Shown: one piece after another, positions 9,158 through 34,509 of the stretch
How positions within the stretch are numbered: the first letter of the stretch is position 1
Layout of the letters: the number at the start of each line of letters is the position of its first letter
From: Minisyncoccota bacterium
Lineage (GTDB): Bacteria; Patescibacteriota; Minisyncoccia; Phycocordibacterales; UBA9973
DNA length: 64,000 nucleotides
Direction of reading: 5' to 3'
Assembly (NCBI GenBank): GCA_017991395.1
Contig: JAGOQQ010000002.1
Coordinates: 61,925-125,924, forward strand
Position numbers and translations under genes: made by a program
The notes under the pieces: model-generated
What the model was told of the DNA's origin: nothing
The model's database searches: none
The model's input: only the letters and a program-made list of their open reading frames with translations

Positions 9158-11896
9158 ATGGAAGGTTACCTAAAAGAAGTTCCTCAATTTAATACACCAG
9201 AAGAAGAACTTGCGTATTTGCGTGAGCATGTTTCTCGTCGTGAAAAAGAACTCTATGAAAATGGATTTGAAGCAGAAAAAGCAAAGATAGCACACGAAAC
9301 TCTTCGTTCATATGGAAATATTCCAAAAGCTCAAGCACTAGAACGCAGTCAAATGATACAAGACGGCGAAGCACACGAGATAGTTCTTCGCCTCAAGCCT
9401 GAACCACATGATCACAAAATGGAAGAATTGCTTGGTATTTTACTCGAGCGAGGAATTCGAAATGTTCTTGATATTATAGAAAAATCAAAAAACCCACATC
9501 TTGACGATGACTTCCATCGCTTTTTGGTGCAATATCTTATTTCGTCTGACCAAATACCAGGGTTGAAAGAGGGAACGGAAATTTGGAAATCTCTCCATAT
9601 GAAATTGTTTGAAGTGACTCTCCCAGAAAAATCTGGAAATGACACTCGTGGATTCAAGGATTTTCTCGGAGGAATGGAACAGTTTTTTGCTGGAATGAAT
9701 TCAATTGCTTCAGACAAAGACAATACGAAGAAAAATTATTTTACTATTGAAGTAGCACTTTCAAATCAAAGTGATGAAGTCGTGGTGTATGTGGGTGTGC
9801 CAAATGAAAAGATTGATTTGTTCGAGAAACAATTGAACGCATCATTTCCAAATTCAAAAATCCGCGAAGTCGTGGATGACTACAATGTGTTTATGGAAGG
9901 CGGTGGATCTGCAGGCTCATATGCAGTACTTGAAGAAAGCGAAATTTATCCACTCAAGACTTTTGATACCTTTGATCACGATCCAATTAATGCACTTTTG
10001 AATGCGTTTTCTAAACTCAAAAAAGAAGGCGAGGGAGCGTCAGTACAGTTTGTGATTGCACCGACCGGGACTACTCACATCAAGCGATTTCAGGATGTAC
10101 TTAAACATGTTGAAAAAGGTCTTTCCGCAAAAGATGCTCTCAAAAAAACTTCAAGCGCAATCGATGATGCACTTATTGAGATCGGAAAAGGATTATTTTT
10201 TGGACATACTTCAAACAAGGACGAAAAAGAACCACCAAAAATAGATGACCGCACAATCAAGCGAATTACAGAAAAAATGAAAGCGACGATGGTGCTTTCA
10301 AATATCCGCATAATTTCTGGTGCTCGTGATGTTGTTCGAGCAGAACAAATAGTGGCAGAAATTGCGTCATCATTCAATCAGTTTACCGAAGCAGGAAGCA
10401 ATAGTCTTGTCTGGAAAAAAGTTGAGGGAAATTCTGCAAAGGAACTTTTTCATATGTTTTCATATCGCATTTTTGACGATTCAAAAAAGCTGGTGCTCAA
10501 TCTCCACGAGCTCTCAACTATGATTCATTTTCCATATGGCATCACCAGCGCACCACAGCTCAAGCAAGCACGTGCGGGTACTGCATCAGCACCACTTGAA
10601 CTTATTGGCGAAGGGACGCTCCTTGGTGTCAATCGTTTTCGAGGATTTGAAACTCCGGCATATCTGACAAAGGAAGATCGCGTGAGACATTTTTATTGTA
10701 TTGGACAAACCGGTACTGGTAAGACGACTCTATTGAAAAATATGATAGTCCAAGATATCGAAGCAGGCCACGGTGTGTGTTATATTGATCCGCACGGAAA
10801 TGATATCCAAGATATTCTTGCTTCTATTCCACGAGAGCGTATTGATGATGTGATTTATTTTGACCCCGCATACACAGCTCGACCAATGGGTCTCAACATG
10901 CTCGAATACGATCCACGATTTCCTGAACAAAAAAGTTTTGTGGTGGATGAGATGCTTTCGATTTTCAATAAGCTTTTTGATATGAAAACTGCGGGAGGTC
11001 CTATGTTTGAACAATACTTCAGAAACGCTACGATGCTCGTACTTGAAGATCCAGAAAGTGGAAATACACTTCTTGATATTTCACGCGTGCTTGCAGATGA
11101 AAAATTTCGCGCGCTCAAACTATCAAAGTGCACCAATCCGGTAATCCTTCAGTTTTGGAATAATATTGCAGGGAAGGCAGGAGGTGAAGCGTCTCTTCAA
11201 AACATCGTCCCTTATATCGTCTCAAAATTTGACGTGTTTCTATCAAATGAAATAATGCGTCCGATTGTTGCTCAAGAAAAATCCGTATTTAATTTTCGAG
11301 AAATTATGGATAACAAAAAGATTTTGCTTGTGAATCTCTCAAAGGGTCGTCTCGGTGAAATCAATTCGAGCTTGCTCGGACTTGTGATTGTAGGAAAAAT
11401 TTTGATGTCGGCACTTTCTCGCACGGATGCGATGGGACAAAAGCTCAATGATTTTTATTTGTATATTGATGAATTCCAAAATGTGACCACAAACTCAATT
11501 TCACAAATTCTTTCTGAAGCACGAAAATATAGACTTTCGCTCAATATCGCTCACCAATACATTGGTCAACTTGAAGAGGGAATCAAAAATGCGGTGTTTG
11601 GAAACGTCGGATCAATGGCAGTATTTCGTGTTGGACCAGACGACGCAAAATATCTTGAAGCACAGCTTGCTCCGGTATTTTCATCTGATGATATTATTAA
11701 GCTCGAAAATAGAAATGCGTATTTGAAACTTCTTGTGAATGGTCAACCAGTAAAACCATTTAATATAGAAACACTTCGCCCGCCAGAAGGTCGCCCGGAA
11801 ATTATCGACAAGCTGAAAGAGCTTTCATACCTCACATACGGACGCGACAGAGCTGAGGTAGAGGAAGAAGTGGCGCGTAGATATCGAGCACTCTAA
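9158..11896 (+). CDS. 912-aa cytoplasmic FtsK/HerA/VirD4-superfamily P-loop ATPase (T4SS coupling-protein-like, TraG-D_C-like C-terminus) with no predicted TM segments
   Basis: Walker A GQTGTGKTT at roughly aa 515. Walker B YLYIDEFQN followed by ARKYRLSLNIAHQYIGQL, as in TraD/TraG/VirD4 C-terminal domains. The ~480-aa N-terminal region is soluble with no recognisable motif. Confidence 0.5.
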   Translation: MEGYLKEVPQFNTPEEELAYLREHVSRREKELYENGFEAEKAKIAHETLRSYGNIPKAQALERSQMIQDGEAHEIVLRLKPEPHDHKMEELLGILLERGIRNVLDIIEKSKNPHLDDDFHRFLVQYLISSDQIPGLKEGTEIWKSLHMKLFEVTLPEKSGNDTRGFKDFLGGMEQFFAGMNSIASDKDNTKKNYFTIEVALSNQSDEVVVYVGVPNEKIDLFEKQLNASFPNSKIREVVDDYNVFMEGGGSAGSYAVLEESEIYPLKTFDTFDHDPINALLNAFSKLKKEGEGASVQFVIAPTGTTHIKRFQDVLKHVEKGLSAKDALKKTSSAIDDALIEIGKGLFFGHTSNKDEKEPPKIDDRTIKRITEKMKATMVLSNIRIISGARDVVRAEQIVAEIASSFNQFTEAGSNSLVWKKVEGNSAKELFHMFSYRIFDDSKKLVLNLHELSTMIHFPYGITSAPQLKQARAGTASAPLELIGEGTLLGVNRFRGFETPAYLTKEDRVRHFYCIGQTGTGKTTLLKNMIVQDIEAGHGVCYIDPHGNDIQDILASIPRERIDDVIYFDPAYTARPMGLNMLEYDPRFPEQKSFVVDEMLSIFNKLFDMKTAGGPMFEQYFRNATMLVLEDPESGNTLLDISRVLADEKFRALKLSKCTNPVILQFWNNIAGKAGGEASLQNIVPYIVSKFDVFLSNEIMRPIVAQEKSVFNFREIMDNKKILLVNLSKGRLGEINSSLLGLVIVGKILMSALSRTDAMGQKLNDFYLYIDEFQNVTTNSISQILSEARKYRLSLNIAHQYIGQLEEGIKNAVFGNVGSMAVFRVGPDDAKYLEAQLAPVFSSDDIIKLENRNAYLKLLVNGQPVKPFNIETLRPPEGRPEIIDKLKELSYLTYGRDRAEVEEEVARRYRAL

Positions 11897-22923: not shown

Positions 22924-22997
22924 CCGTCCTTAGCTCAGTTGGTTAGAGCACAGAGCTTATACCTCTGGGGTCCATGGTTCGAATCCATGAGGACGGA
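22924..22997 (+). tRNA. tRNA-Ile with anticodon UAU (reads AUA)
   Basis: Manual cloverleaf: acceptor CCGTCCT/AGGACGG, D GCTC/GAGC, anticodon stem CAGAG/CTCTG with loop CTTATAC (anticodon TAT), T-arm CATGG-TTCGAAT-CCATG, discriminator A. No encoded CCA. Confidence 0.75.
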
Positions 22998-23046
22998 CAA
23001 ACATAAGAAGCGACACCGTCAGGCGTCGCTTTTTATGTTTGTCCGT
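22984..23046 (+). repeat. ~62 bp direct repeat (tRNA-Ile 3' end plus terminator hairpin); second copy at 23200..23262
   Basis: atccatgaggacggacaaacataagaagcgacaccgtcaggcgtcgctttttatgtttgtccg appears twice about 216 bp apart. Confidence 0.8.
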
Positions 23047-23279
23047 CCTCAGTGAACAAACTGCTTTGTTCACGTATGGATTCGAAAGGCGCAGGCATGT
23101 TTTTCAAAGTTCACACTTTGAAAAATGCCGAGCCCAGGTCAGGAGTACTTTGTAGAATTTGAGCGTCGCGAAAAATTATACTTAGTAACTCGGGACCGAT
23201 TCCATGAGGACGGACAAACATAAGAAGCGACACCGTCAGGCGTCGCTTTTTATGTTTGTCCGATAAGTATGAAATCAAC

Positions 23280-23832: not shown

Positions 23833-26487
23833 CTATTCAAAATGAAATGTGCTAAATTTTGAAACTTTTTCTTTGAGTATCGGGTATGAATCAAGCTCAC
23901 TATCAGATTCAACCATTTTGAGTGCTTCATTTCGGGCAGCTTCAACCATTTTGAGATTTTTGATTGCCTCCATTCCAAGGTCTGTGATACCCCACTGTTT
24001 TCCTCCTCCAAGTTCTCCCGCGCCACGAAGTTGCAAATCAAGCTCTGAAAGTTCAAATCCATTTTTCGCTGTTTTAAGTGCCTTAAGTCTGTCGAGAGTT
24101 TTTTGAGTTTTTGCATCTGCAAAAAGATAACAATACGCTTGATGATTTCCACGGATAACACGACCCCGAAGCTGGTGAAGCTGTGCGAGTCCAAATCTCT
24201 CCGCACCTTCGATGATTATCATTGTGGCGTTTGGCACATTCACTCCCACTTCGACCACCGAAGTTGCGACAAGAATATCGATTTCGTGGCGAGAAAAGGA
24301 TTGCATGATCTCTTCCTTTTTCTCTTTGGTCATTTTTGAATGAAGTATTCCAATTTTTGAACCTTTGAATACTTCCTTTGAAAGTCTCTCTGCTTCACTT
24401 GTGACTGATTTCACTTGCAGTGCCATTTCTTGATCCGGGTCTGGGTCGTTGATTCGCGGACAAATCACATAAAGCTGACGACCGGATGCCATTTCCTTTT
24501 TTATAGCGTCATAGGTTTTTTGTCTACCGTCCACACCAATAATTTCTGTGATGATTGGTTTTCGACCACTTGGCATTTGGTCGATAATACTCACGTCCAA
24601 ATCTCCGTAGATTGTAAGTGCGAGAGTACGAGGAATAGGCGTTGCGGTCATGGACAACAGGTGGGGCATGATCGCGGACTGACGCGGACTTGACGCGGAA
24701 CGAGCTTGATTTACATTTCGTGCAAGCTGGTATACTACTCTTTCAACATCGAGTGTTGATTTACCGAAATTGACTAAAAGTCCGAGTTCAAAATCTGATC
24801 CTTTGAGATATGACCACAGTTGTTTCTTTTCCTGGGTTCCGAGAAACGGAAGTGTTTTTAGCTCTACAACAATTTTATTTTCTACAACAAAGTCCGGAAT
24901 GTATGTACCCACTTTTTTACCTCTAAATTTAATATCAATTCTATGTTCTTGAGAAAATTGTATATTATTTTTTTTCAATTCTATCGCCAAAGCTTTTTGA
25001 TAAATAATTTCTTTATGCCCAAGCCCAAGTTCTTGTTTTACGTTGAATAGAGATCTTCTGATTGCATACGTAAGGTCGCGGAATAGCAATGAGTCATCGA
25101 CTGTTTTATCAAAATGAGTATTCTCGAGGTCGGATTTTTTCCGCGTGAGTTCTGCGCTGTCCGCGTCAAACTTGCCCCTAGCAAGGAGGAAGCGTTGGTT
25201 GGTTCCAAATCTATGTTGTTCATCGATTATCACAAGTGCGAGATGTTTAAACTTCACGCTTTTTTGGATGAGTGTGTGCGTTCCAATTACAATCGGGATA
25301 TCACCAGAGGCGACCCATTTCATGAGCTGAGGTTTTGAAACTGTTGTCCACGAATCTGGGTTGACCTTTGAGGGGAATTTTCTGCACCCACTTCCTGTCA
25401 TGAGTGCGATGGATATCCCTGTGTGCCTGAAATACGTGATGAAGTTTTCAAAGAGTTGTGTTGCGAGAATTTCTGTCGGTGCCATATATGCCACTTGAAG
25501 TGAACCAAATTTTTGATCATTTGGTCGACTCGAAATAATTGAGTGAGACACCACTGCGGCAACTGCAGTCTTTCCACTACCCACATCTCCTTCAAGGAGT
25601 CGTGCCATTGGATGAGGTTTTTTTAAATCAGAAAGTATTGTGTTGATTGAATCCATCTGACCTTTAGTCGGAGTGAAGGGAAATCTGCTGATGAATGACT
25701 CAGTGTCTTTTTTTGATGTGGTGACAGTGAATGCATTGTTCTCACGAAATATTTTTTTATCTTGTTGTTTTTTGAGTTGGATAACAAACACTTCTTCAAA
25801 TGCAAAACGCTTTCGTGCGACTTCAGCGTGTTCTTTTTTCTTTGGAGTATGAACCCAGACATATGCTGTTGAAAGAGAAGGAAGGTTGTACTTTTTGAGA
25901 ATCGACTCCGGAATGTATTCTTCGAGTGTGTCGAGTAATCCAGATTTAAAAATTCTATCTATTGCATGATAGAGCCATTTTGAGGTGACAAACTTTGTTT
26001 CGGGATAAATTGGATATCCAAAAACTTCATGCGAATTTCCCTCATCGCTAAATAATGATGAATGCGAATCAATAGGCAGGTCGGGTGTTTTTTCAAATTC
26101 AGGGTTGGTCAGATAAAGTCCCGTACTTCCTTCGGCGACTTTTCCTGTGATTTTTACGGTATCACCATCACGAAGCATTTTTGCAATGTATGCTTGGTTG
26201 AACCACATCACCTTCATTTTTCCAGAAAGATCTTCGATCCACGCTTCAGCCATTGGAATTTTTGTACGAAAAGACTTCTTTGTTTTTGGTGCACTGATGG
26301 TGCCGTAGATTGTGATACTTTCTCCTTTTACCGCATCAGCGATTGACTTTATGGTAGAGAGGTCGCTGTATCGTGTGGGAAAATAGCGAAGTATATCTTC
26401 AATGGTCTGAAGTTTGATTCGGGTTAGCGCTTTTTTTTGTTGTTCATCAATTCGAAAATGTTTCTCGATTGTATCGGTTAGATTCAT
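23833..26487 (-). CDS. recG: ATP-dependent DNA helicase RecG carrying an in-frame ~180-aa insertion between helicase motifs II and III
   Basis: Wedge/N-terminal domain, Walker A LEGDVGSGKTAVA, motif II IIDEQHRFG, motif III MTATPIPRTL and C-terminal helicase motifs (VATSVVEVGVNVPNATMIII, QLRGRVIRG). Motifs II and III are separated by ~185 aa, versus the ~25 aa between these motifs in E. coli RecG as recalled from memory. Confidence 0.85.
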   Translation of the reverse strand: MNLTDTIEKHFRIDEQQKKALTRIKLQTIEDILRYFPTRYSDLSTIKSIADAVKGESITIYGTISAPKTKKSFRTKIPMAEAWIEDLSGKMKVMWFNQAYIAKMLRDGDTVKITGKVAEGSTGLYLTNPEFEKTPDLPIDSHSSLFSDEGNSHEVFGYPIYPETKFVTSKWLYHAIDRIFKSGLLDTLEEYIPESILKKYNLPSLSTAYVWVHTPKKKEHAEVARKRFAFEEVFVIQLKKQQDKKIFRENNAFTVTTSKKDTESFISRFPFTPTKGQMDSINTILSDLKKPHPMARLLEGDVGSGKTAVAAVVSHSIISSRPNDQKFGSLQVAYMAPTEILATQLFENFITYFRHTGISIALMTGSGCRKFPSKVNPDSWTTVSKPQLMKWVASGDIPIVIGTHTLIQKSVKFKHLALVIIDEQHRFGTNQRFLLARGKFDADSAELTRKKSDLENTHFDKTVDDSLLFRDLTYAIRRSLFNVKQELGLGHKEIIYQKALAIELKKNNIQFSQEHRIDIKFRGKKVGTYIPDFVVENKIVVELKTLPFLGTQEKKQLWSYLKGSDFELGLLVNFGKSTLDVERVVYQLARNVNQARSASSPRQSAIMPHLLSMTATPIPRTLALTIYGDLDVSIIDQMPSGRKPIITEIIGVDGRQKTYDAIKKEMASGRQLYVICPRINDPDPDQEMALQVKSVTSEAERLSKEVFKGSKIGILHSKMTKEKKEEIMQSFSRHEIDILVATSVVEVGVNVPNATMIIIEGAERFGLAQLHQLRGRVIRGNHQAYCYLFADAKTQKTLDRLKALKTAKNGFELSELDLQLRGAGELGGGKQWGITDLGMEAIKNLKMVEAARNEALKMVESDSELDSYPILKEKVSKFSTFHFE
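24650..25200 (-). other. in-frame GxxExxY-family (PD-(D/E)xK-like, 23S-rRNA-IVS-type) domain inserted inside recG, flanked by GCGGA-repeat clusters
   Basis: Insert sequence ...LGLGHKEIIYQKALAIELKKNNIQFSQEHRIDIKFRGKKVGTYIPDFVVENKIVVELKTLPFLGTQEKKQLWSYLKGSDFELGLLVNFGKSTLDVERVV contains the literal G-H-K-E-I-I-Y (GxxExxY) and a PDF...ELK PD-(D/E)xK core. Nucleotide flanks: gcggactgacgcggacttgacgcggaac at 24661-24700, and its partial inverted counterpart at 25139-25170. Confidence 0.6.
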
Positions 26488-30090: not shown

Positions 30091-30293
30091 CGCGGTGTGT
30101 ATTGAACGAAGTTCGAATGTATTTTGAATTGAATCCTGACGACCAATGATGCGCGCCTCGGACACGCTCGCGGACTCGCGTGTGCAAAAACCAAAAAATT
30201 TCCTTGCATTTTTCTCGCGTCTCCTCCCCCCACCCCTCCGCCGCGAAGCGGAAAAAGAAATGGAAAGGAAATTTTTGGTTTTGCTTCGCCGTT
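30091..30293. repeat. inverted repeat arm A (~203 bp) with an internal long palindrome (aaaccaaaaaatttccttgcatttttc...gaaaaagaaatggaaaggaaatttttggttt around a GC-rich core)
   Basis: Reverse complement of 32270..32474. ORF-track translations on opposite strands are identical over about 65 aa (AKQNQKFPFHFFFRFAAEGWGEETREKCKEIFWFLHTRVRERVRGAHHWSSGFNSKYIRTSFNTHR). Confidence 0.85.
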
Positions 30294-30573: not shown

Positions 30574-31317
30574 TTATTTAAAATTCATAGTCCACTTATC
30601 TTTACCTTCCCAACCATCAAACATTTTTCCATGTCCCATTTCTCGGCTCAGTTTTTCAATACCAGAAAGTAAATCTTGTTGAGTTTTAAGGTCTGCTGTT
30701 TCTAAAATATGTTTTATTTTTTCTACAAATTCTTTGGGCGACCAAGGCAAATTTTCCAAAGGATACTTTTCTAGTTCTTTTTGAACATAACCGAGAAATG
30801 GTCTATGCCTGCCATTCATGGCAAATACGAGTGTAAGTAAATCAAGCATGGAGTTTACTGCCTCCAAATGAGCACCAAACATATTATTATTGCGAATACA
30901 TTTTACAGAGCGATATACACCATTTACATACCCGTCAATCCACCAATCAATAAATTTATTCAATTTATCTGGCGGTATTTGACCTTTTTCCTTAACCAGT
31001 TTTTCCAATTCTCCGTCTGTCCTGTCTACAAGAATTTTGACATGAGCGTAATTATATCTGTCCCATGATTCTGGGCTTTCCCAGCCAGCAAATGTTTTGA
31101 AATCAGAGAAAGAACGCACTGACAAATCCACATTATCTAAAGTCATCTTTTCGTATTTTTCGTGGATTGTGTTAGCGGCTTCGTCTTTAATAATCATTAC
31201 AGCATCATAATCGGAATGTTCATTTTCAAAACCCTTGCCACGCGAACCAACAAGAATGAAGCCGACAACGTCCTCGTTTTCTTGTGCCTCTTTAAGTATT
31301 TTTTCGTAGTCGTTCAT
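30574..31317 (-). CDS. ANT(6)/AadK-like minimal nucleotidyltransferase (putative aminoglycoside adenylyltransferase-family protein)
   Basis: N-terminal NTase motif VGFILVGSRGKGFENEHSDYDAVMII (GS...DxD) and a helical C-terminal domain. The layout resembles the ANT(6) N-terminal motif (GSRANINIPKDEFQDYDITYFV in ANT(6)-Ia) as recalled from memory. Confidence 0.5.
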   Translation of the reverse strand: MNDYEKILKEAQENEDVVGFILVGSRGKGFENEHSDYDAVMIIKDEAANTIHEKYEKMTLDNVDLSVRSFSDFKTFAGWESPESWDRYNYAHVKILVDRTDGELEKLVKEKGQIPPDKLNKFIDWWIDGYVNGVYRSVKCIRNNNMFGAHLEAVNSMLDLLTLVFAMNGRHRPFLGYVQKELEKYPLENLPWSPKEFVEKIKHILETADLKTQQDLLSGIEKLSREMGHGKMFDGWEGKDKWTMNFK

Positions 31318-31321
31318 AGAT

Positions 31322-31981
31322 TTATTTTAACATTTTATTAGCTAATAATAATTTTTGAATAAGTTCCGAAATATTTTTATGGACAGGCCAAATTTTTTGT
31401 ATTTCGGCACGCATATCTTGATGTTGAAGGTATCCCTCATCTCGTTTTCCATTCATTAGATCGGAAAACTCAAGATTCAAAAGTTCCGTCAAAGATTCTT
31501 TGATGTCGTTATACGCCAATTTTGAAAGTCCCTCGTCTAGCAACTTTTTACCGAAAGTGTGCCATGTGTAGAAATGTAAAAGTTCGTGCATTATCGTGTT
31601 GTTGGAAAATTCCGAGCCGATTCTGACGAAAAAATAGTTTTGCTCGATGTTGTAGGTACAACGCTCGTTGTGGGTCAAATAAACAGTAATAATCGGGGCT
31701 GGGTAAGAAATGCCGAATAACTTTTCCACTCGCTCAATGAAAATGGGTTCGGCAATTTTCCATCTTGCCTCTACAGCAACAATTTCCTTGTTAGCGTCGA
31801 AACCACTTATTTTGTCTTGTTCCCCAATAAACGCCTTGACCTTTTCCGTTTCAAAATTTTCGCCGTATTTTTCGGAAAACGAAATTTGAAACTTTGTTGG
31901 TTTCTTACTATTCGTCGCGTTCGTTCCCTTGATAAAGTTTTCAACGTCCTTATCTATATTGTATGCAAAATGTAATTTCAT
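31322..31981 (-). CDS. HExxH-motif protein (putative ImmA/IrrE-like zinc metallopeptidase), function unknown
   Basis: IMHELLHFYTWH contains HExxH. It is co-oriented and adjacent to an XRE-family HTH gene, as in ImmR/ImmA modules. Confidence 0.35.
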   Translation of the reverse strand: MKLHFAYNIDKDVENFIKGTNATNSKKPTKFQISFSEKYGENFETEKVKAFIGEQDKISGFDANKEIVAVEARWKIAEPIFIERVEKLFGISYPAPIITVYLTHNERCTYNIEQNYFFVRIGSEFSNNTIMHELLHFYTWHTFGKKLLDEGLSKLAYNDIKESLTELLNLEFSDLMNGKRDEGYLQHQDMRAEIQKIWPVHKNISELIQKLLLANKMLK

Positions 31982-32269: not shown

Positions 32270-32474
32270 TAACGGCGAAGCAAAACCAAAAATTTCCTTT
32301 CCATTTCTTTTTCCGCTTCGCGGCGGAGGGGTGGGGGGAGGAGACGCGAGAAAAATGCAAGGAAATTTTTTGGTTTTTGCACACGCGAGTCCGCGAGCGT
32401 GTCCGAGGCGCGCATCATTGGTCGTCAGGATTCAATTCAAAATACATTCGAACTTCGTTCAATACACACCGCCA
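32270..32474. repeat. inverted repeat arm B (reverse complement of 30091..30293), directly fused to 32471..32587
   Basis: Sequence identity, plus shared ORF-track peptides on opposite strands. Confidence 0.85.
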
Positions 32475-32587
32475 GAAAACGAAATCGGATTTTAGAGCCG
32501 AAATGGGGTCGCGCCGAAGGCGCGACACTAGGGCATTCCCCCCGCCGAATCCAGAATCCAAAAGGGTTTTCCACGCTCCGCGTGGCT
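32471..32587. repeat. second inverted repeat: reverse complement of 33994..34110, which abuts the tRNA-Ser 3' end
   Basis: Peptide RKRNRILEPKWGRAEGATLGHSPRRIQNPKGFSTLRVA is encoded on opposite strands at both loci. Confidence 0.85.
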
Positions 32588-32609
32588 CGTCGTTTGCCAA
32601 TACAATTCT

Positions 32610-34160
32610 ATGAATAATCAAACCAAAAAGTTTTTCATATATACTCGCAAGTCTACGGACGACAAAGACAGACAAGTCCGCAGTATTTCCGACCAGTTGA
32701 GTGAGTTAAAAGAGTTAGCGCTGAAAGAGCAACTGGAAGTGATGGATGTCTTTGTCGAAAAGCAGACCGCCAAAATACCAGGTCGTCCCGTGTTTAATGA
32801 AATGATGACGAGAATGGAAGCGGGCGAAGCGTCTGGTATTTTGGCGTGGCATCCCGATAGACTTGCTCGCAACTCGGTAGATGGAGGAAAAATCATCTAC
32901 CTCGTTGATACTGGAGTAATTTCAGAAATGAAATTCCCAACTTTTTGGTTTGATCCGACACCGCAAGGCAAATTCATGCTCTCAATCGCTTTTTCGCAAT
33001 CCAAGTATTATGTGGACAATTTGAGTGAAAATATCAAGCGCGGACATAGAAACAAAGTGAAGGAAGGGATATGGCCTCAAATGTCTCCGATTGGATATGT
33101 GAACGAGAAAGGAAAAGGTATTGTGCCACATCCTGAACTTTCGATTTTAGTAAAAAAGACATTTGAGGCATATGCAACTGGAAACTTCACTTTGCGGGAA
33201 GTCCGCGACAAATTTAACGCGCTTGGATTGAAAAGAAAAAGCGGTAGAGAGCTTGCGGTGTCGAATTATCAAAAACTTCTCAAAAATCCTATTTACACTG
33301 GTCTCATGAGGTATAACGGAGAGATTTTTGAGGGAAAGCACGAACCGATTATTTCAAAGAAACTTTTTGATTCTGTTCAAGAAGTGATGAGTCGAAAATC
33401 TAAACCTCATTCCAAAGGTTTGAAACCATATATTTATCGGGGATTTTTCCGTTGCGGAGAATGTGGATGTTTTATAACTACCGAGCAACAAAAAGGTCAT
33501 AACTATTTGCGATGTACCAAACGGAAAAATCCTTGTGAGCAAAAATATGTTCGTGAGGAGCTCATCACTTCTCAAATTCAAGAGGAAATCAAAAAAGTTT
33601 CTTTGCCTCTCGATTGGACAGAATGGATGATTGCCGAAAATGCAAAGGATCGGCAATCGGAAGTCCAATCAAGTGAGATTTTTTCTCAAAAAATACAAAG
33701 TAAAATTTCTCTTTTGGATGCAAAAATGGAGAAGCTGATGTCTGCGTATTTGGAAAGTGCATTTTCGCTTGAAGAATATCGTGATGCTAAAAGTGCCATG
33801 GTTAACTCAAAACAGCTTCTCAAAGAGAAATTATCAGCTTTTGAGAAAAAATCTCATAATCGGTTCGAACTTACCGAAAAGTTTTTGAAATACAATATGG
33901 AATTGGCAAACGACCGAACAAATGAGGAAAATACTCATTTGTTCAAAAAAGTCGGTTCGAACTTTCAAATTAAGGATCGAACCGTACTTTTTGAGCCACG
34001 CGGAGCGTGGAAAACCCTTTTGGATTCTGGATTCGGCGGGGGGAATGCCCTAGTGTCGCGCCTTCGGCGCGACCCCATTTCGGCTCTAAAATCCGATTTC
34101 GTTTTCTGGCGGAGACGGAGAGATTCGAACTCTCGAGGCCATTACAGCCTGCCTCCTTAG
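32610..34160 (+). CDS. large serine recombinase (resolvase/invertase N-terminal catalytic domain, recombinase domain, zinc ribbon, coiled-coil). The annotated 3' end runs through the repeat and tRNA-Ser, so the true stop may be earlier or the C-terminus repeat-derived
   Basis: FFIYTRKSTDDKDRQVRSISDQ (catalytic Ser in YTRKS), GILAWHPDRLARN, recombinase-domain residues, and a Cys cluster RCGECGCF...CTKRKNPC. Confidence 0.8.
   Translation: MNNQTKKFFIYTRKSTDDKDRQVRSISDQLSELKELALKEQLEVMDVFVEKQTAKIPGRPVFNEMMTRMEAGEASGILAWHPDRLARNSVDGGKIIYLVDTGVISEMKFPTFWFDPTPQGKFMLSIAFSQSKYYVDNLSENIKRGHRNKVKEGIWPQMSPIGYVNEKGKGIVPHPELSILVKKTFEAYATGNFTLREVRDKFNALGLKRKSGRELAVSNYQKLLKNPIYTGLMRYNGEIFEGKHEPIISKKLFDSVQEVMSRKSKPHSKGLKPYIYRGFFRCGECGCFITTEQQKGHNYLRCTKRKNPCEQKYVREELITSQIQEEIKKVSLPLDWTEWMIAENAKDRQSEVQSSEIFSQKIQSKISLLDAKMEKLMSAYLESAFSLEEYRDAKSAMVNSKQLLKEKLSAFEKKSHNRFELTEKFLKYNMELANDRTNEENTHLFKKVGSNFQIKDRTVLFEPRGAWKTLLDSGFGGGNALVSRLRRDPISALKSDFVFWRRRRDSNSRGHYSLPP
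33994..34110. repeat. inverted repeat arm C (partner of 32471..32587), ending at the tRNA-Ser CCA end
   Basis: See 32471..32587. Confidence 0.85.
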
Positions 34161-34195
34161 CAAGGAGGTACGTTAGACCACTCCGACACGTCTCC
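34107..34195 (-). tRNA. tRNA-Ser (anticodon GCU), class II with a long variable arm and encoded CCA
   Basis: Reverse complement GGAGACGTGTCGGAGTGGTCTAACGTACCTCCTTGCTAAGGAGGCAGGCTGTAATGGCCTCGAGAGTTCGAATCTCTCCGTCTCCGCCA. Anticodon stem CCTCC/GGAGG with loop TTGCTAA, T-arm AGAGA-TTCGAAT-CTCT, discriminator G. Confidence 0.85.
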
Positions 34196-34299
34196 AGATA
34201 ACATAAAAACAATACCATATTTAGTCTCTTTTTCCCAAAAAATCTACCTCTTAAAAATCATAGAAAAAAAGCACAATATATGATATATTCTATTCGCAC

Positions 34300-34386
34300 G
34301 GAGGATTGGATGAGTGGTTTAAATCAACGGTTTACTAAACCGTCGTTCCTTAATTGGAACCGTGAGTTCGAATCTCACATCCTCCG
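34300..34386 (+). tRNA. class-II (Ser-like, G73) tRNA with anticodon loop UUACUAA, i.e. an apparent ACU anticodon; possibly aberrant or a pseudo-tRNA
   Basis: Acceptor GGAGGAT/ATCCTCC (7 bp). 3-bp D stem GAT/ATC. Anticodon stem ACGGT/ACCGT. Variable-arm hairpin GTTCC-ttaatt-GGAAC. T-arm GTGAG-TTCGAAT-CTCAC. Discriminator G. Confidence 0.55.
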
Positions 34387-34388
34387 CA

Positions 34389-34426
34389 AAAAAACCAAAC
34401 TCAGATTATCTGAGTTTGGTTTTTAA
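34389..34426 (+). terminator. intrinsic terminator (aaaccaaactcaga-ttat-ctgagtttggttttt)
   Basis: Perfect 14-bp stem followed by a T-run. Confidence 0.7.
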
Positions 34427-34509
34427 AATTTTGACAAAAAAATAATTTTATTGACTTATTGCGTAAACGTTTCGCTTCAGAAGAACACGTTGACTCGTAG
34501 TTTGTCAAA

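Follow-up and report, generated by a model that had tools for sequence, protein, structure and literature searches.

A serine tRNA gene with an ACU anticodon

The stretch of DNA analysed here (64,000 nt, referred to as the window) is chromosomal DNA of a bacterium belonging to Patescibacteria (CPR, for candidate phyla radiation) with a GC content of about 40%. At 34300..34386 (+) it carries an elongator-type class-II tRNA gene with the anticodon A34-C35-U36 and the discriminator G73, termed tRNA-Ser(ACU) in the following, which was delimited by ARAGORN, by the Rfam family RF00005 and by covariation within its own family. ARAGORN called a tRNA-Ser with the anticodon act at 34300-34387(+). The RF00005 model covered 34300-34386 end to end (model positions 1-71 of 71, zero non-canonical pairs flagged) and scored 56.1 bits against a gathering score of 29. 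The gene has a 7-bp acceptor stem (GGAGGAU/AUCCUCC), a 3-bp D stem (G10-C25, A11-U24, U12-A23) with G18 and G19 present, a 5-bp anticodon stem (ACGGU/ACCGU) closing the 7-nt loop UUACUAA, a variable arm with a 5-bp stem (GUUCC/GGAAC) and the T arm GUGAG-UUCGAAU-CUCAC; the CCA end is not encoded. An earlier note on this DNA, made from the letters alone, had described a class-II tRNA with this loop. Every structural detail of that description was borne out, and the note was also right in placing ACU outside the usual serine anticodons of bacteria. The acceptor and T stems show the standard 7/5 geometry. tRNA-Sec and allo-tRNA have 8/5, 9/4, 8/4 or 9/3 geometries, and both identities were ruled out by the 7/5 geometry and by an anticodon other than UCA.

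Ten nucleotides 5' of the tRNA start ends a sigma-70-like promoter candidate (34261..34289, +; TAGAAA, 17 nt, TATATT, with a TG before the -10), which came from a consensus scan only (9/12 matches) and may work as a promoter. A hairpin resembling an intrinsic terminator (34390..34429, +; CCAAACUCAGAU / AUCUGAGUUUGG, lengthened by A/U pairs and followed by a U run) begins 4 nt past the gene. In RNA folding it reached -20.9 kcal/mol (z = -8.0), and 0/200 shuffles were as stable. The divergent partner of the gene, tRNA-Ser(GCU), lies at 34107..34195 (-), has an encoded CCA and was called by ARAGORN and Rfam, the latter with 52.0 bits, a lower score than that of tRNA-Ser(ACU). The two genes are separated by 104 nt, in agreement with the distance stated earlier, and their anticodon loops are identical except for G34 in the GCU gene.

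As a single sequence, tRNA-Ser(ACU) folded only moderately better than its shuffles (z = -3.1); it is the comparative evidence that makes a chance fold untenable. At least 301 distinct ACU sequences were collected, 154 cellular and 148 viral, one of them common to both. The cellular covariation alignment comprised 113 distinct sequences, in which double compensatory changes were found at 18/25 pairs and 98.9% of the cells were paired. In control alignments with the 3' partners slid by 1-3 columns, only 34-61% of the cells were paired. The covariation score was 0.586 versus at most 0.097 for the slid controls, and 0/500 shuffles attained 0.586. Because of this difference in pairing, the canonical register with a 7-nt loop is the only one supported; another loop register giving a standard anticodon, which the earlier note had named as a refutation of its reading, was looked for and found no support, and ARAGORN agreed on act. 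The viral ACU set covaried as well (19/27 pairs). The cloverleaf is maintained by selection, and the ACU gene is not a pseudogene.

In a comparison with the anticodon and variable arms masked, the nearest neighbour of 161/172 cellular ACU genes was another cellular ACU gene. Identity of ACU genes to the GCU gene of the same locus was 0.683 versus 0.676 to GCU genes elsewhere, and a signal of same-genome co-evolution of the two genes was not found in this comparison. These results indicated that the ACU isoacceptor is old and inherited as such, and that it is not remade by recurrent G34A mutation or gene conversion. The earlier note had offered a decaying duplicate as one explanation, that is, a recent G34A copy of tRNA-Ser(GCU) drifting to a pseudogene. 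The short distance to the GCU gene and the single transition between the two anticodons would suit such an origin, but the gene is intact and outscores its GCU neighbour in Rfam, it is as distant from that neighbour as from GCU genes in unrelated loci and finds its closest kin among the ACU genes, and the 301 distinct sequences show compensatory changes and almost no broken pairs. We therefore consider a decaying duplicate practically out of the question. tRNA-Ser(ACU) is intact, conserved, shaped by selection, of the serine type and a lineage of its own.

The serine type is apparent from the determinants used by seryl-tRNA synthetase (SerRS), an enzyme that identifies its tRNAs by the long variable arm, G73 and the first acceptor pairs, irrespective of the anticodon. 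In E. coli the identity set of SerRS consists of G73, G2:C71 and A3:U70, and also of C11:G24 in the D stem. Among the 113 distinct ACU sequences, G1:C72, G2:C71 and G73 were invariant, A3:U70 was present in 112/113, and all had a long variable arm, with covariation. The bacterial tRNA-Ser(GCU), which decodes AGU and AGC, shares class II, G73, G2:C71 and A3:U70 with tRNA-Ser(ACU) and has the loop UUGCUAA instead of UUACUAA. The two differ in A34, in the anticodon stem (CGGU/ACCG in ACU versus CCUCY/RGAGG in GCU) and in the separate lineages of their bodies, although their genes are usually adjacent or co-transcribed.

Distribution in bacterial and viral genomes

A scan of one genome per species (185,579 species) was carried out with a query composed of the ACU anticodon arm, class-II spacing and the T loop; the cellular figures rest on 120 loci listed and are thus a lower bound. 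ARAGORN called tRNA-Ser(act) in 118/120 of these loci, which corresponds to at least 118 species-level genomes. Among the matches listed, the labels were overwhelmingly Patescibacteria (including Paceibacteria, Nomura-, Taylor- and Zambryskibacteria, Saccharibacteria, Microgenomates, Levyi- and Roizmanbacteria and Minisyncoccia), plus four apparently chromosomal loci of the Planctomycetota-Verrucomicrobiota-Chlamydiota (PVC) group. Thirteen loci were labelled Gammaproteobacteria or Pseudomonadales; their GC content was 35-44%, nine of them had their best protein-level match in CPR-labelled loci and the other four had zero matches, and these labels are probable mislabels. The loci L037 (Flavobacteriales) and L070 (Pirellulales) matched viral contigs and are probably phage DNA in bins of metagenome-assembled genomes (MAGs). 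The PVC loci L010, L011, L030 and L107, from MAGs of Verrucomicrobiota and Planctomycetota with a GC content of 51-60%, carry an ACU gene with the same anticodon arm. They appear to be chromosomal, since metabolic genes are present in L010, L030 and L107, and L011 is a close match to L030.

A GCU gene was present in the same source as the ACU gene in 69/119 cases among the matches listed, in 39 divergent and 31 tandem pairs. Divergent genes, as in the window, were typically 50-115 nt apart and tandem genes 3-21 nt. In some relatives, e.g. L056 and L068, five serine anticodons (UGA, CGA, GGA, GCU and ACU) were found within 8 kb. The full standard serine set beside ACU implies that ACU is an addition and not a substitute for a missing member. 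The earlier note had raised the combination of a pseudogene with a full serine set present elsewhere: the full set does stand beside ACU in relatives, but the ACU gene is no pseudogene.

The association was also sampled in reverse, from metagenome contigs picked by the CPR-type GCU anticodon arm. A Ser(ACU) gene was found in the same, often short, metagenome locus for 51/118 GCU genes (43%). Among the GCU genes flanked by 300 nt or more in either direction, 28/81 had an ACU gene within 300 nt, and the figure from the ACU-sampled side was similar (46/120 listed loci). The similarity of both sampling directions suggests, as a rough estimate, that most genomes with a CPR-type GCU gene also have an ACU gene. 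This sampling took in ACU genes regardless of their own loop, and the loop was UUACUAA in 51/52 of them; their anticodon stems were CGGU/ACCG in 39 and the covarying CAGU/ACUG in 12.

Viral contigs of IMG/VR were scanned in the same manner of counting, with 120 loci listed for the first pattern as a lower bound. tRNA-Ser(act) was called in 120/120 of them, and a second scan, from which the U31-A39 pair was excluded, yielded 106 more ACU loci with many different stems. At least 5 tRNAs were present in 131/231 ACU-bearing viral loci (231 again being a lower bound), and the viral ACU gene mostly lay in clusters of ordinary decoders (Thr UGU, Gln UUG, Asn GUU, Glu UUC, Lys UUU, Arg UCU). An unbiased scan with the loop UURCUAA, which leaves position 34 free, gave 19 ACU versus 93 GCU genes, so that about 17% of the viral AGU/AGC serine tRNAs have A34. 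In seven other split boxes (Phe, Tyr, His, Asn, Asp, Cys, Ile), viral loci held 446 G34 and 4 A34 genes (<1%). Across the viral loci L125-L244 and L380-L604, other predicted anticodons starting with A were rare: Phe(AAA) (1), Cys(ACA) (1), Ile(AAU) (2), Thr(AGU) (10), Leu(AAG) (3) and Ser(AGA) (1). A tRNA-Cys(ACA) was also predicted in one metagenome locus (L271:2992-3061). With the anticodon arm excluded, viral and cellular ACU genes were no closer to each other than to other serine tRNAs.

One cultured carrier was identified, the Ralstonia phage RP13, in whose record (LC554890.1) the gene lies at 138609-138698 and is annotated just as tRNA-Ser. BLAST is blind to the choice of anticodon; against annotated phages it gave mainly tRNA-Ser(UGA) or tRNA-Ser(GCU) genes, and only RP13 had ACU. 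A 7-kb stretch of the viral locus L126 matched cultured phages only at tRNA genes and at one short unannotated or HNH-endonuclease stretch.

The recombinase gene and the genomic neighbourhood

A large serine recombinase gene with Resolvase, Recombinase and Zn-ribbon domains occupies 32610-34160 of the window, with its end lying within tRNA-Ser(GCU). On either side of it stands one arm of a perfect 120-nt inverted repeat (32469-32588 and 33993-34112), of which the right arm takes in part of the 3' end of the recombinase open reading frame (ORF) and the last 6 nt (CCGCCA) of tRNA-Ser(GCU). This repeat could mark an invertible segment or a unit resembling an insertion sequence, or it could be an assembly artefact. 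No direct repeat of the 3' end of either serine tRNA was found within the window, where the 6-nt overlap with the inverted repeat is the only partial copy of a tRNA 3' end. The earlier note had taken tRNA-Ser(GCU) as the integration site. The recombinase gene that ends inside it is the only sign pointing to such a role.

Homologues of the recombinase with 64-76% identity converge on the 3' end of the ACU gene, overlapping or abutting it, in four CPR loci (L024:5208-5822, L006:6-527, L026:2-508 and L091:2-424), and in a further locus a homologue with 88% identity starts just downstream of ACU (L015:3733-5169). Homologous recombinases at ACU 3' ends indicate that elements of this family insert at serine tRNA genes and that the ACU gene is one of their hotspots. 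These homologues and the recombinase gene of the window would also be expected if tRNA-Ser(ACU) were a tRNA-like decoy, as suggested in the earlier note, or an attachment-site duplicate, in either case carried in by the adjacent element. However, most loci hold the ACU-GCU pair without any recombinase, and apart from the 6-nt overlap the window has no partial copy of either tRNA 3' end; an origin of the gene from the element is highly improbable. By the same comparison the ACU gene is a resident gene, a target and not a cargo of recombinase elements.

Around the tRNA pair the window carries genes for ribosomal proteins, SecY, Adk, Map, Ndk, L20, IF3 and TruB, as well as for SmpB with tmRNA, FtsH, RecG, LigA, GatA and type IV pilus components. 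FtsH is 84% identical to that of the Nomurabacteria MAG locus L038, where the order FtsH, tRNA-Ile(UAU), RecG precedes the same Ser(ACU)/Ser(GCU) pair. The tRNA-Ile(UAU) gene, at 22924-22998 of the window, represents a rare bacterial route to reading AUA without lysidine and recurs among CPR and viral loci. Its 3' end and a downstream hairpin-forming sequence are duplicated (22980-23045 and 23197-23262; 66 nt, 98% identical, 217 nt on). RecG (23833-26487, -) contains a PD-(D/E)XK nuclease domain (PF13366, residues 471-583) between both helicase lobes. A hairpin-forming element of about 95 nt occurs twice (30188-30282 and 32282-32377, 2.09 kb apart), once on each side of a gene pair for a nucleotidyltransferase (30574-31317) and a SprT-like protein (31322-31981), and the whole may form a small cassette. 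Among the housekeeping genes lies a 912-aa ORF (9158-11896, +) that had no Pfam match and whose sole relative among the fetched loci was found in L008 (35% identity over 622 aa).

Cell-envelope genes, for a C39-like peptidase and for a VanW/PG-binding/G5 protein, adjoin tRNA-Ser(ACU) in the window. The short-read Logan contig L001 (SRR11088448_121152), on which the same VanW and C39-peptidase genes lie, stops at about the expected ACU position; this hints at strain variation or at an assembly break at the junction of the tRNA pair and the recombinase gene. Such neighbours could be taken to mean that Ser-tRNA(ACU) feeds a tRNA-dependent transferase, e.g. in cell-wall or lipid aminoacylation, and is kept from translation. 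SerRS would charge it with any anticodon, and staphylococci have dedicated glycine tRNAs of that sort. These tRNA-Gly-type cell-wall tRNAs of Staphylococcus have lost G18 G19 or the T-loop consensus and have a T stem that binds EF-Tu weakly. None of these hallmarks was found in tRNA-Ser(ACU): the D-loop GG is kept, the T loop (UUCGAAU) is canonical, and the T stem (GUGAG/CUCAC) differs from that of the GCU partner at one pair only. Moreover, the neighbouring genes vary between loci, the phage copies lie inside ordinary decoder arrays, and the loop is invariant in 51/52 unselected genes, which fits decoding. A non-ribosomal donor is accordingly very improbable.

Decoding of AGU and the state of A34

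In the window, AGU was counted 237 times, AGC 80 times, AGA 161 times and AGG 27 times. The share of AGU among AGY codons was 0.66 in CPR and viral loci, and an AGU-specific enrichment beyond the general preference for U-ending codons was not found in them. The frequency of AGA in related loci was 12-17 per 1000. When conserved proteins of the window were aligned with those of E. coli K-12, AGA faced Arg at 11/24, Lys at 4/24 and Ser at 0/24 positions; the Arg share was comparable to that at CGA, CGU and CGC, and AGU and AGC most often faced Ser. The AGN box is read in the standard way, and AGA means arginine in the window. A serine tRNA with A34 or I34 could in principle reach AGA, and arginine codons have been reassigned in other uncultivated bacteria. 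A code change, in which AGA or AGG or all AGN codons are read as serine in this lineage, would make the gene the recoding tRNA that the earlier note had suggested, but the complete lack of Ser at AGA in these alignments and a tRNA-Arg(UCU) gene that adjoins the ACU gene in the CPR locus L263 leave it with almost no probability.

The comparative evidence supports well that tRNA-Ser(ACU) is a serine-charged elongator specialised for AGU, and we consider this role likely. Its expression, serylation and decoding preference and the modification state of A34 are predicted here from DNA sequence. Transcription of the tRNA would begin at a promoter and stop at a terminator that both belong to the gene itself, with CCA added post-transcriptionally, and SerRS would charge it with serine through the variable arm, G73 and the first acceptor pairs and not through the anticodon. 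As an extra AGU/AGC isoacceptor, it would read AGU by a Watson-Crick A34:U pair, the neighbouring tRNA-Ser(GCU) would cover AGC, plus AGU by wobble, and AGA and AGG would remain arginine codons. In Patescibacteria A34 would probably stay unmodified, with the CGN box apparently served by tRNA-Arg(GCG) and not by the TadA substrate tRNA-Arg(ACG).

The target motif of TadA is UACG (U33-A34-C35-G36) on a stem. In the loop of the window gene (U33-A34-C35-U36), U36 stands where this core has G36. Arg(GCG), and never the near-universal Arg(ACG), was found in 9/9 ACU-bearing CPR loci holding an Arg tRNA for the CGN box (L039, L042, L046, L048, L056, L068, L080, L115 and L116), three of which also hold Arg(CCG). 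As tRNA-Arg(ACG) is tied to the presence of tadA (PMC8007984), the ACU-bearing CPR lineages may be devoid of the TadA/inosine system. Judged from the Arg(GCG) loci and the UACU loop, A34 is probably unmodified in CPR. I34 would render the retained GCU gene redundant and misread AGA, a frequent codon; this also counts for an unmodified A34.

Alternatively, TadA or a relative might convert A34 to I34, and the tRNA would then decode AGU, AGC and, weakly, AGA, in the way that tRNA-Arg(ICG) serves its own box. Only positions 32 and 36 distinguish the loop UUACUAA from CUACGAA, the loop of tRNA-Arg(ACG), and TadA is very probably present in PVC genomes and in phage hosts such as Ralstonia. In addition, bacterial A34 is nearly always deaminated where present (PMC8007984), and Phe-AAA, the sole split-box A34 tRNA assayed in a May 2026 preprint, was deaminated to I34 in E. 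coli (bioRxiv 10.64898/2026.05.15.725136). Against inosine stand the U36, the nine informative loci with Arg(GCG), the redundancy of the GCU gene and the misreading of AGA, which is frequent and clearly arginine. A scan of the window and 240 cellular loci for the TadA motif [HC]AE...PCxxC, which returned only one cytidine-deaminase-like ORF, in L062, speaks weakly in the same direction. Altogether, inosine at position 34 appears unlikely.

Several points weigh against tRNA-Ser(ACU) as an unmodified, AGU-specialised serine elongator. The C11:G24 pair of the E. coli SerRS set is A11:U24 in the window gene; across the ACU family this pair is C:G in 52, A:U in 42 and G:C in 19 sequences. The preference for U in other NNY boxes (0.60-0.71) is like that in AGY, and codon bias alone leaves it unexplained why A34 is specific to this box. 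Moreover, AGU is no more frequent than AGC in the four high-GC PVC loci, which nevertheless carry the ACU gene. The Arg(GCG) evidence comes from relatives and not from the window's own genome, and the negative TadA scan covered about 1.6 Mb of CPR DNA, too little for absence. Besides the deamination of Phe-AAA, an unmodified A34 can superwobble (bioRxiv 10.64898/2026.05.15.725136), with the risk that serine is inserted at AGA, a common codon here.

The restriction of A34 to the serine box is best explained by the charging enzyme. For the enzymes that charge the Phe, Tyr, Asn, Asp, Cys and Ile tRNAs, position 34 is an identity element, and A34 would persist in the serine split box and hardly ever elsewhere because SerRS ignores the anticodon. 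The contrast in phage clusters, with A34 in less than 1% of the tRNAs of other split boxes against 17% in AGU/AGC serine tRNAs, fits this explanation.

tRNA-Ser(ACU) differs from the bacterial A34 tRNAs described so far. Mycoplasma lineages with an unmodified-A34 tRNA-Thr(AGU) have a reduced tRNA-modification capacity. Their tRNA-Thr(AGU) is, like ACU, a natural bacterial elongator that keeps A34 (cited as unmodified in bioRxiv 10.64898/2026.05.15.725136), but it serves a four-fold box, where misreading is harmless, whereas ACU serves a box split with arginine. tRNA-Arg(ACG) with TadA and, in Lactobacillales, tRNA-Leu(AAG) or tRNA-Thr(AGU) have, as in ACU, a gene-encoded and lineage-wide A34 (PMC8007984; bioRxiv 10.64898/2026.05.15.725136). 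These tRNAs belong to four-fold boxes, their A34 is converted to I34, and the A34 gene replaces the G34 gene; in the case of ACU, the G34 gene is kept, the UACG motif is broken by U36, and the carriers seem to be without Arg(ACG). The engineered E. coli Ser-tRNA(ACU), a G34A mutant, has the same anticodon on a serine body but is a laboratory construct; cells reportedly tolerated it and gained in fitness, and little mistranslation was predicted (bioRxiv 10.64898/2026.05.15.725136). In phage tRNA clusters that supply decoders of A/U-ending codons, the viral ACU is a regular member beside U34 tRNAs, whereas the window copy is chromosomal in a CPR bacterium with housekeeping genes around it.

A 2021 review describes the Ser-Arg box as lacking A34 throughout (PMC8007984); its bacterial list names 13 phyla, and Patescibacteria are not among them. 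In a GtRNAdb survey of 4,047 bacteria, split-box A34 genes were sporadic and conserved in no lineage, and half of them were Phe-AAA or His-AUG (bioRxiv 10.64898/2026.05.15.725136). Because only sporadic natural ones were seen in GtRNAdb, the authors of this May 2026 preprint built all such A34 tRNAs in E. coli; the text, which quotes Crick as having anticipated the question of A34 avoidance in 1966, nowhere mentions Patescibacteria (bioRxiv 10.64898/2026.05.15.725136). Neither dataset appears to sample CPR. In our literature search, whose coverage did not extend to subscription journals, nothing was found on a bacterial or phage tRNA-Ser(ACU), on its conservation or on CPR tRNA sets. ACU genes have been present in annotated genomes without comment, the RP13 record being an example.

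The rarity of A as the first anticodon base is an old open question. It becomes testable in nature with this large natural set of 301 distinct genes, which are clearly under purifying selection and occur in phages as well as in a major radiation of bacteria. The set raises the questions whether A34 is unmodified, how misreading of AGA is avoided, which features of the anticodon arm restrict wobble and whether the loss of TadA opened the door. The chances appear evenly balanced that this tRNA is an old, vertically inherited split-box elongator with unmodified A34 across Patescibacteria and some PVC bacteria, found also in about one sixth of the phage AGU/AGC serine tRNAs. If this is true, it would be a natural, lineage-wide exception to the exclusion of A34 from split boxes, permitted by a SerRS that is blind to the anticodon and by the apparent loss in CPR of the A-to-I system (TadA and Arg-ACG). 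Should the tRNA be inosine-modified or not used in translation, the finding would be less fundamental and still an unreported conserved feature. The ACU gene is in addition an insertion site for serine-recombinase elements, and tRNA annotation and codon-adaptation models for CPR bacteria and phages should count ACU as a real serine decoder.

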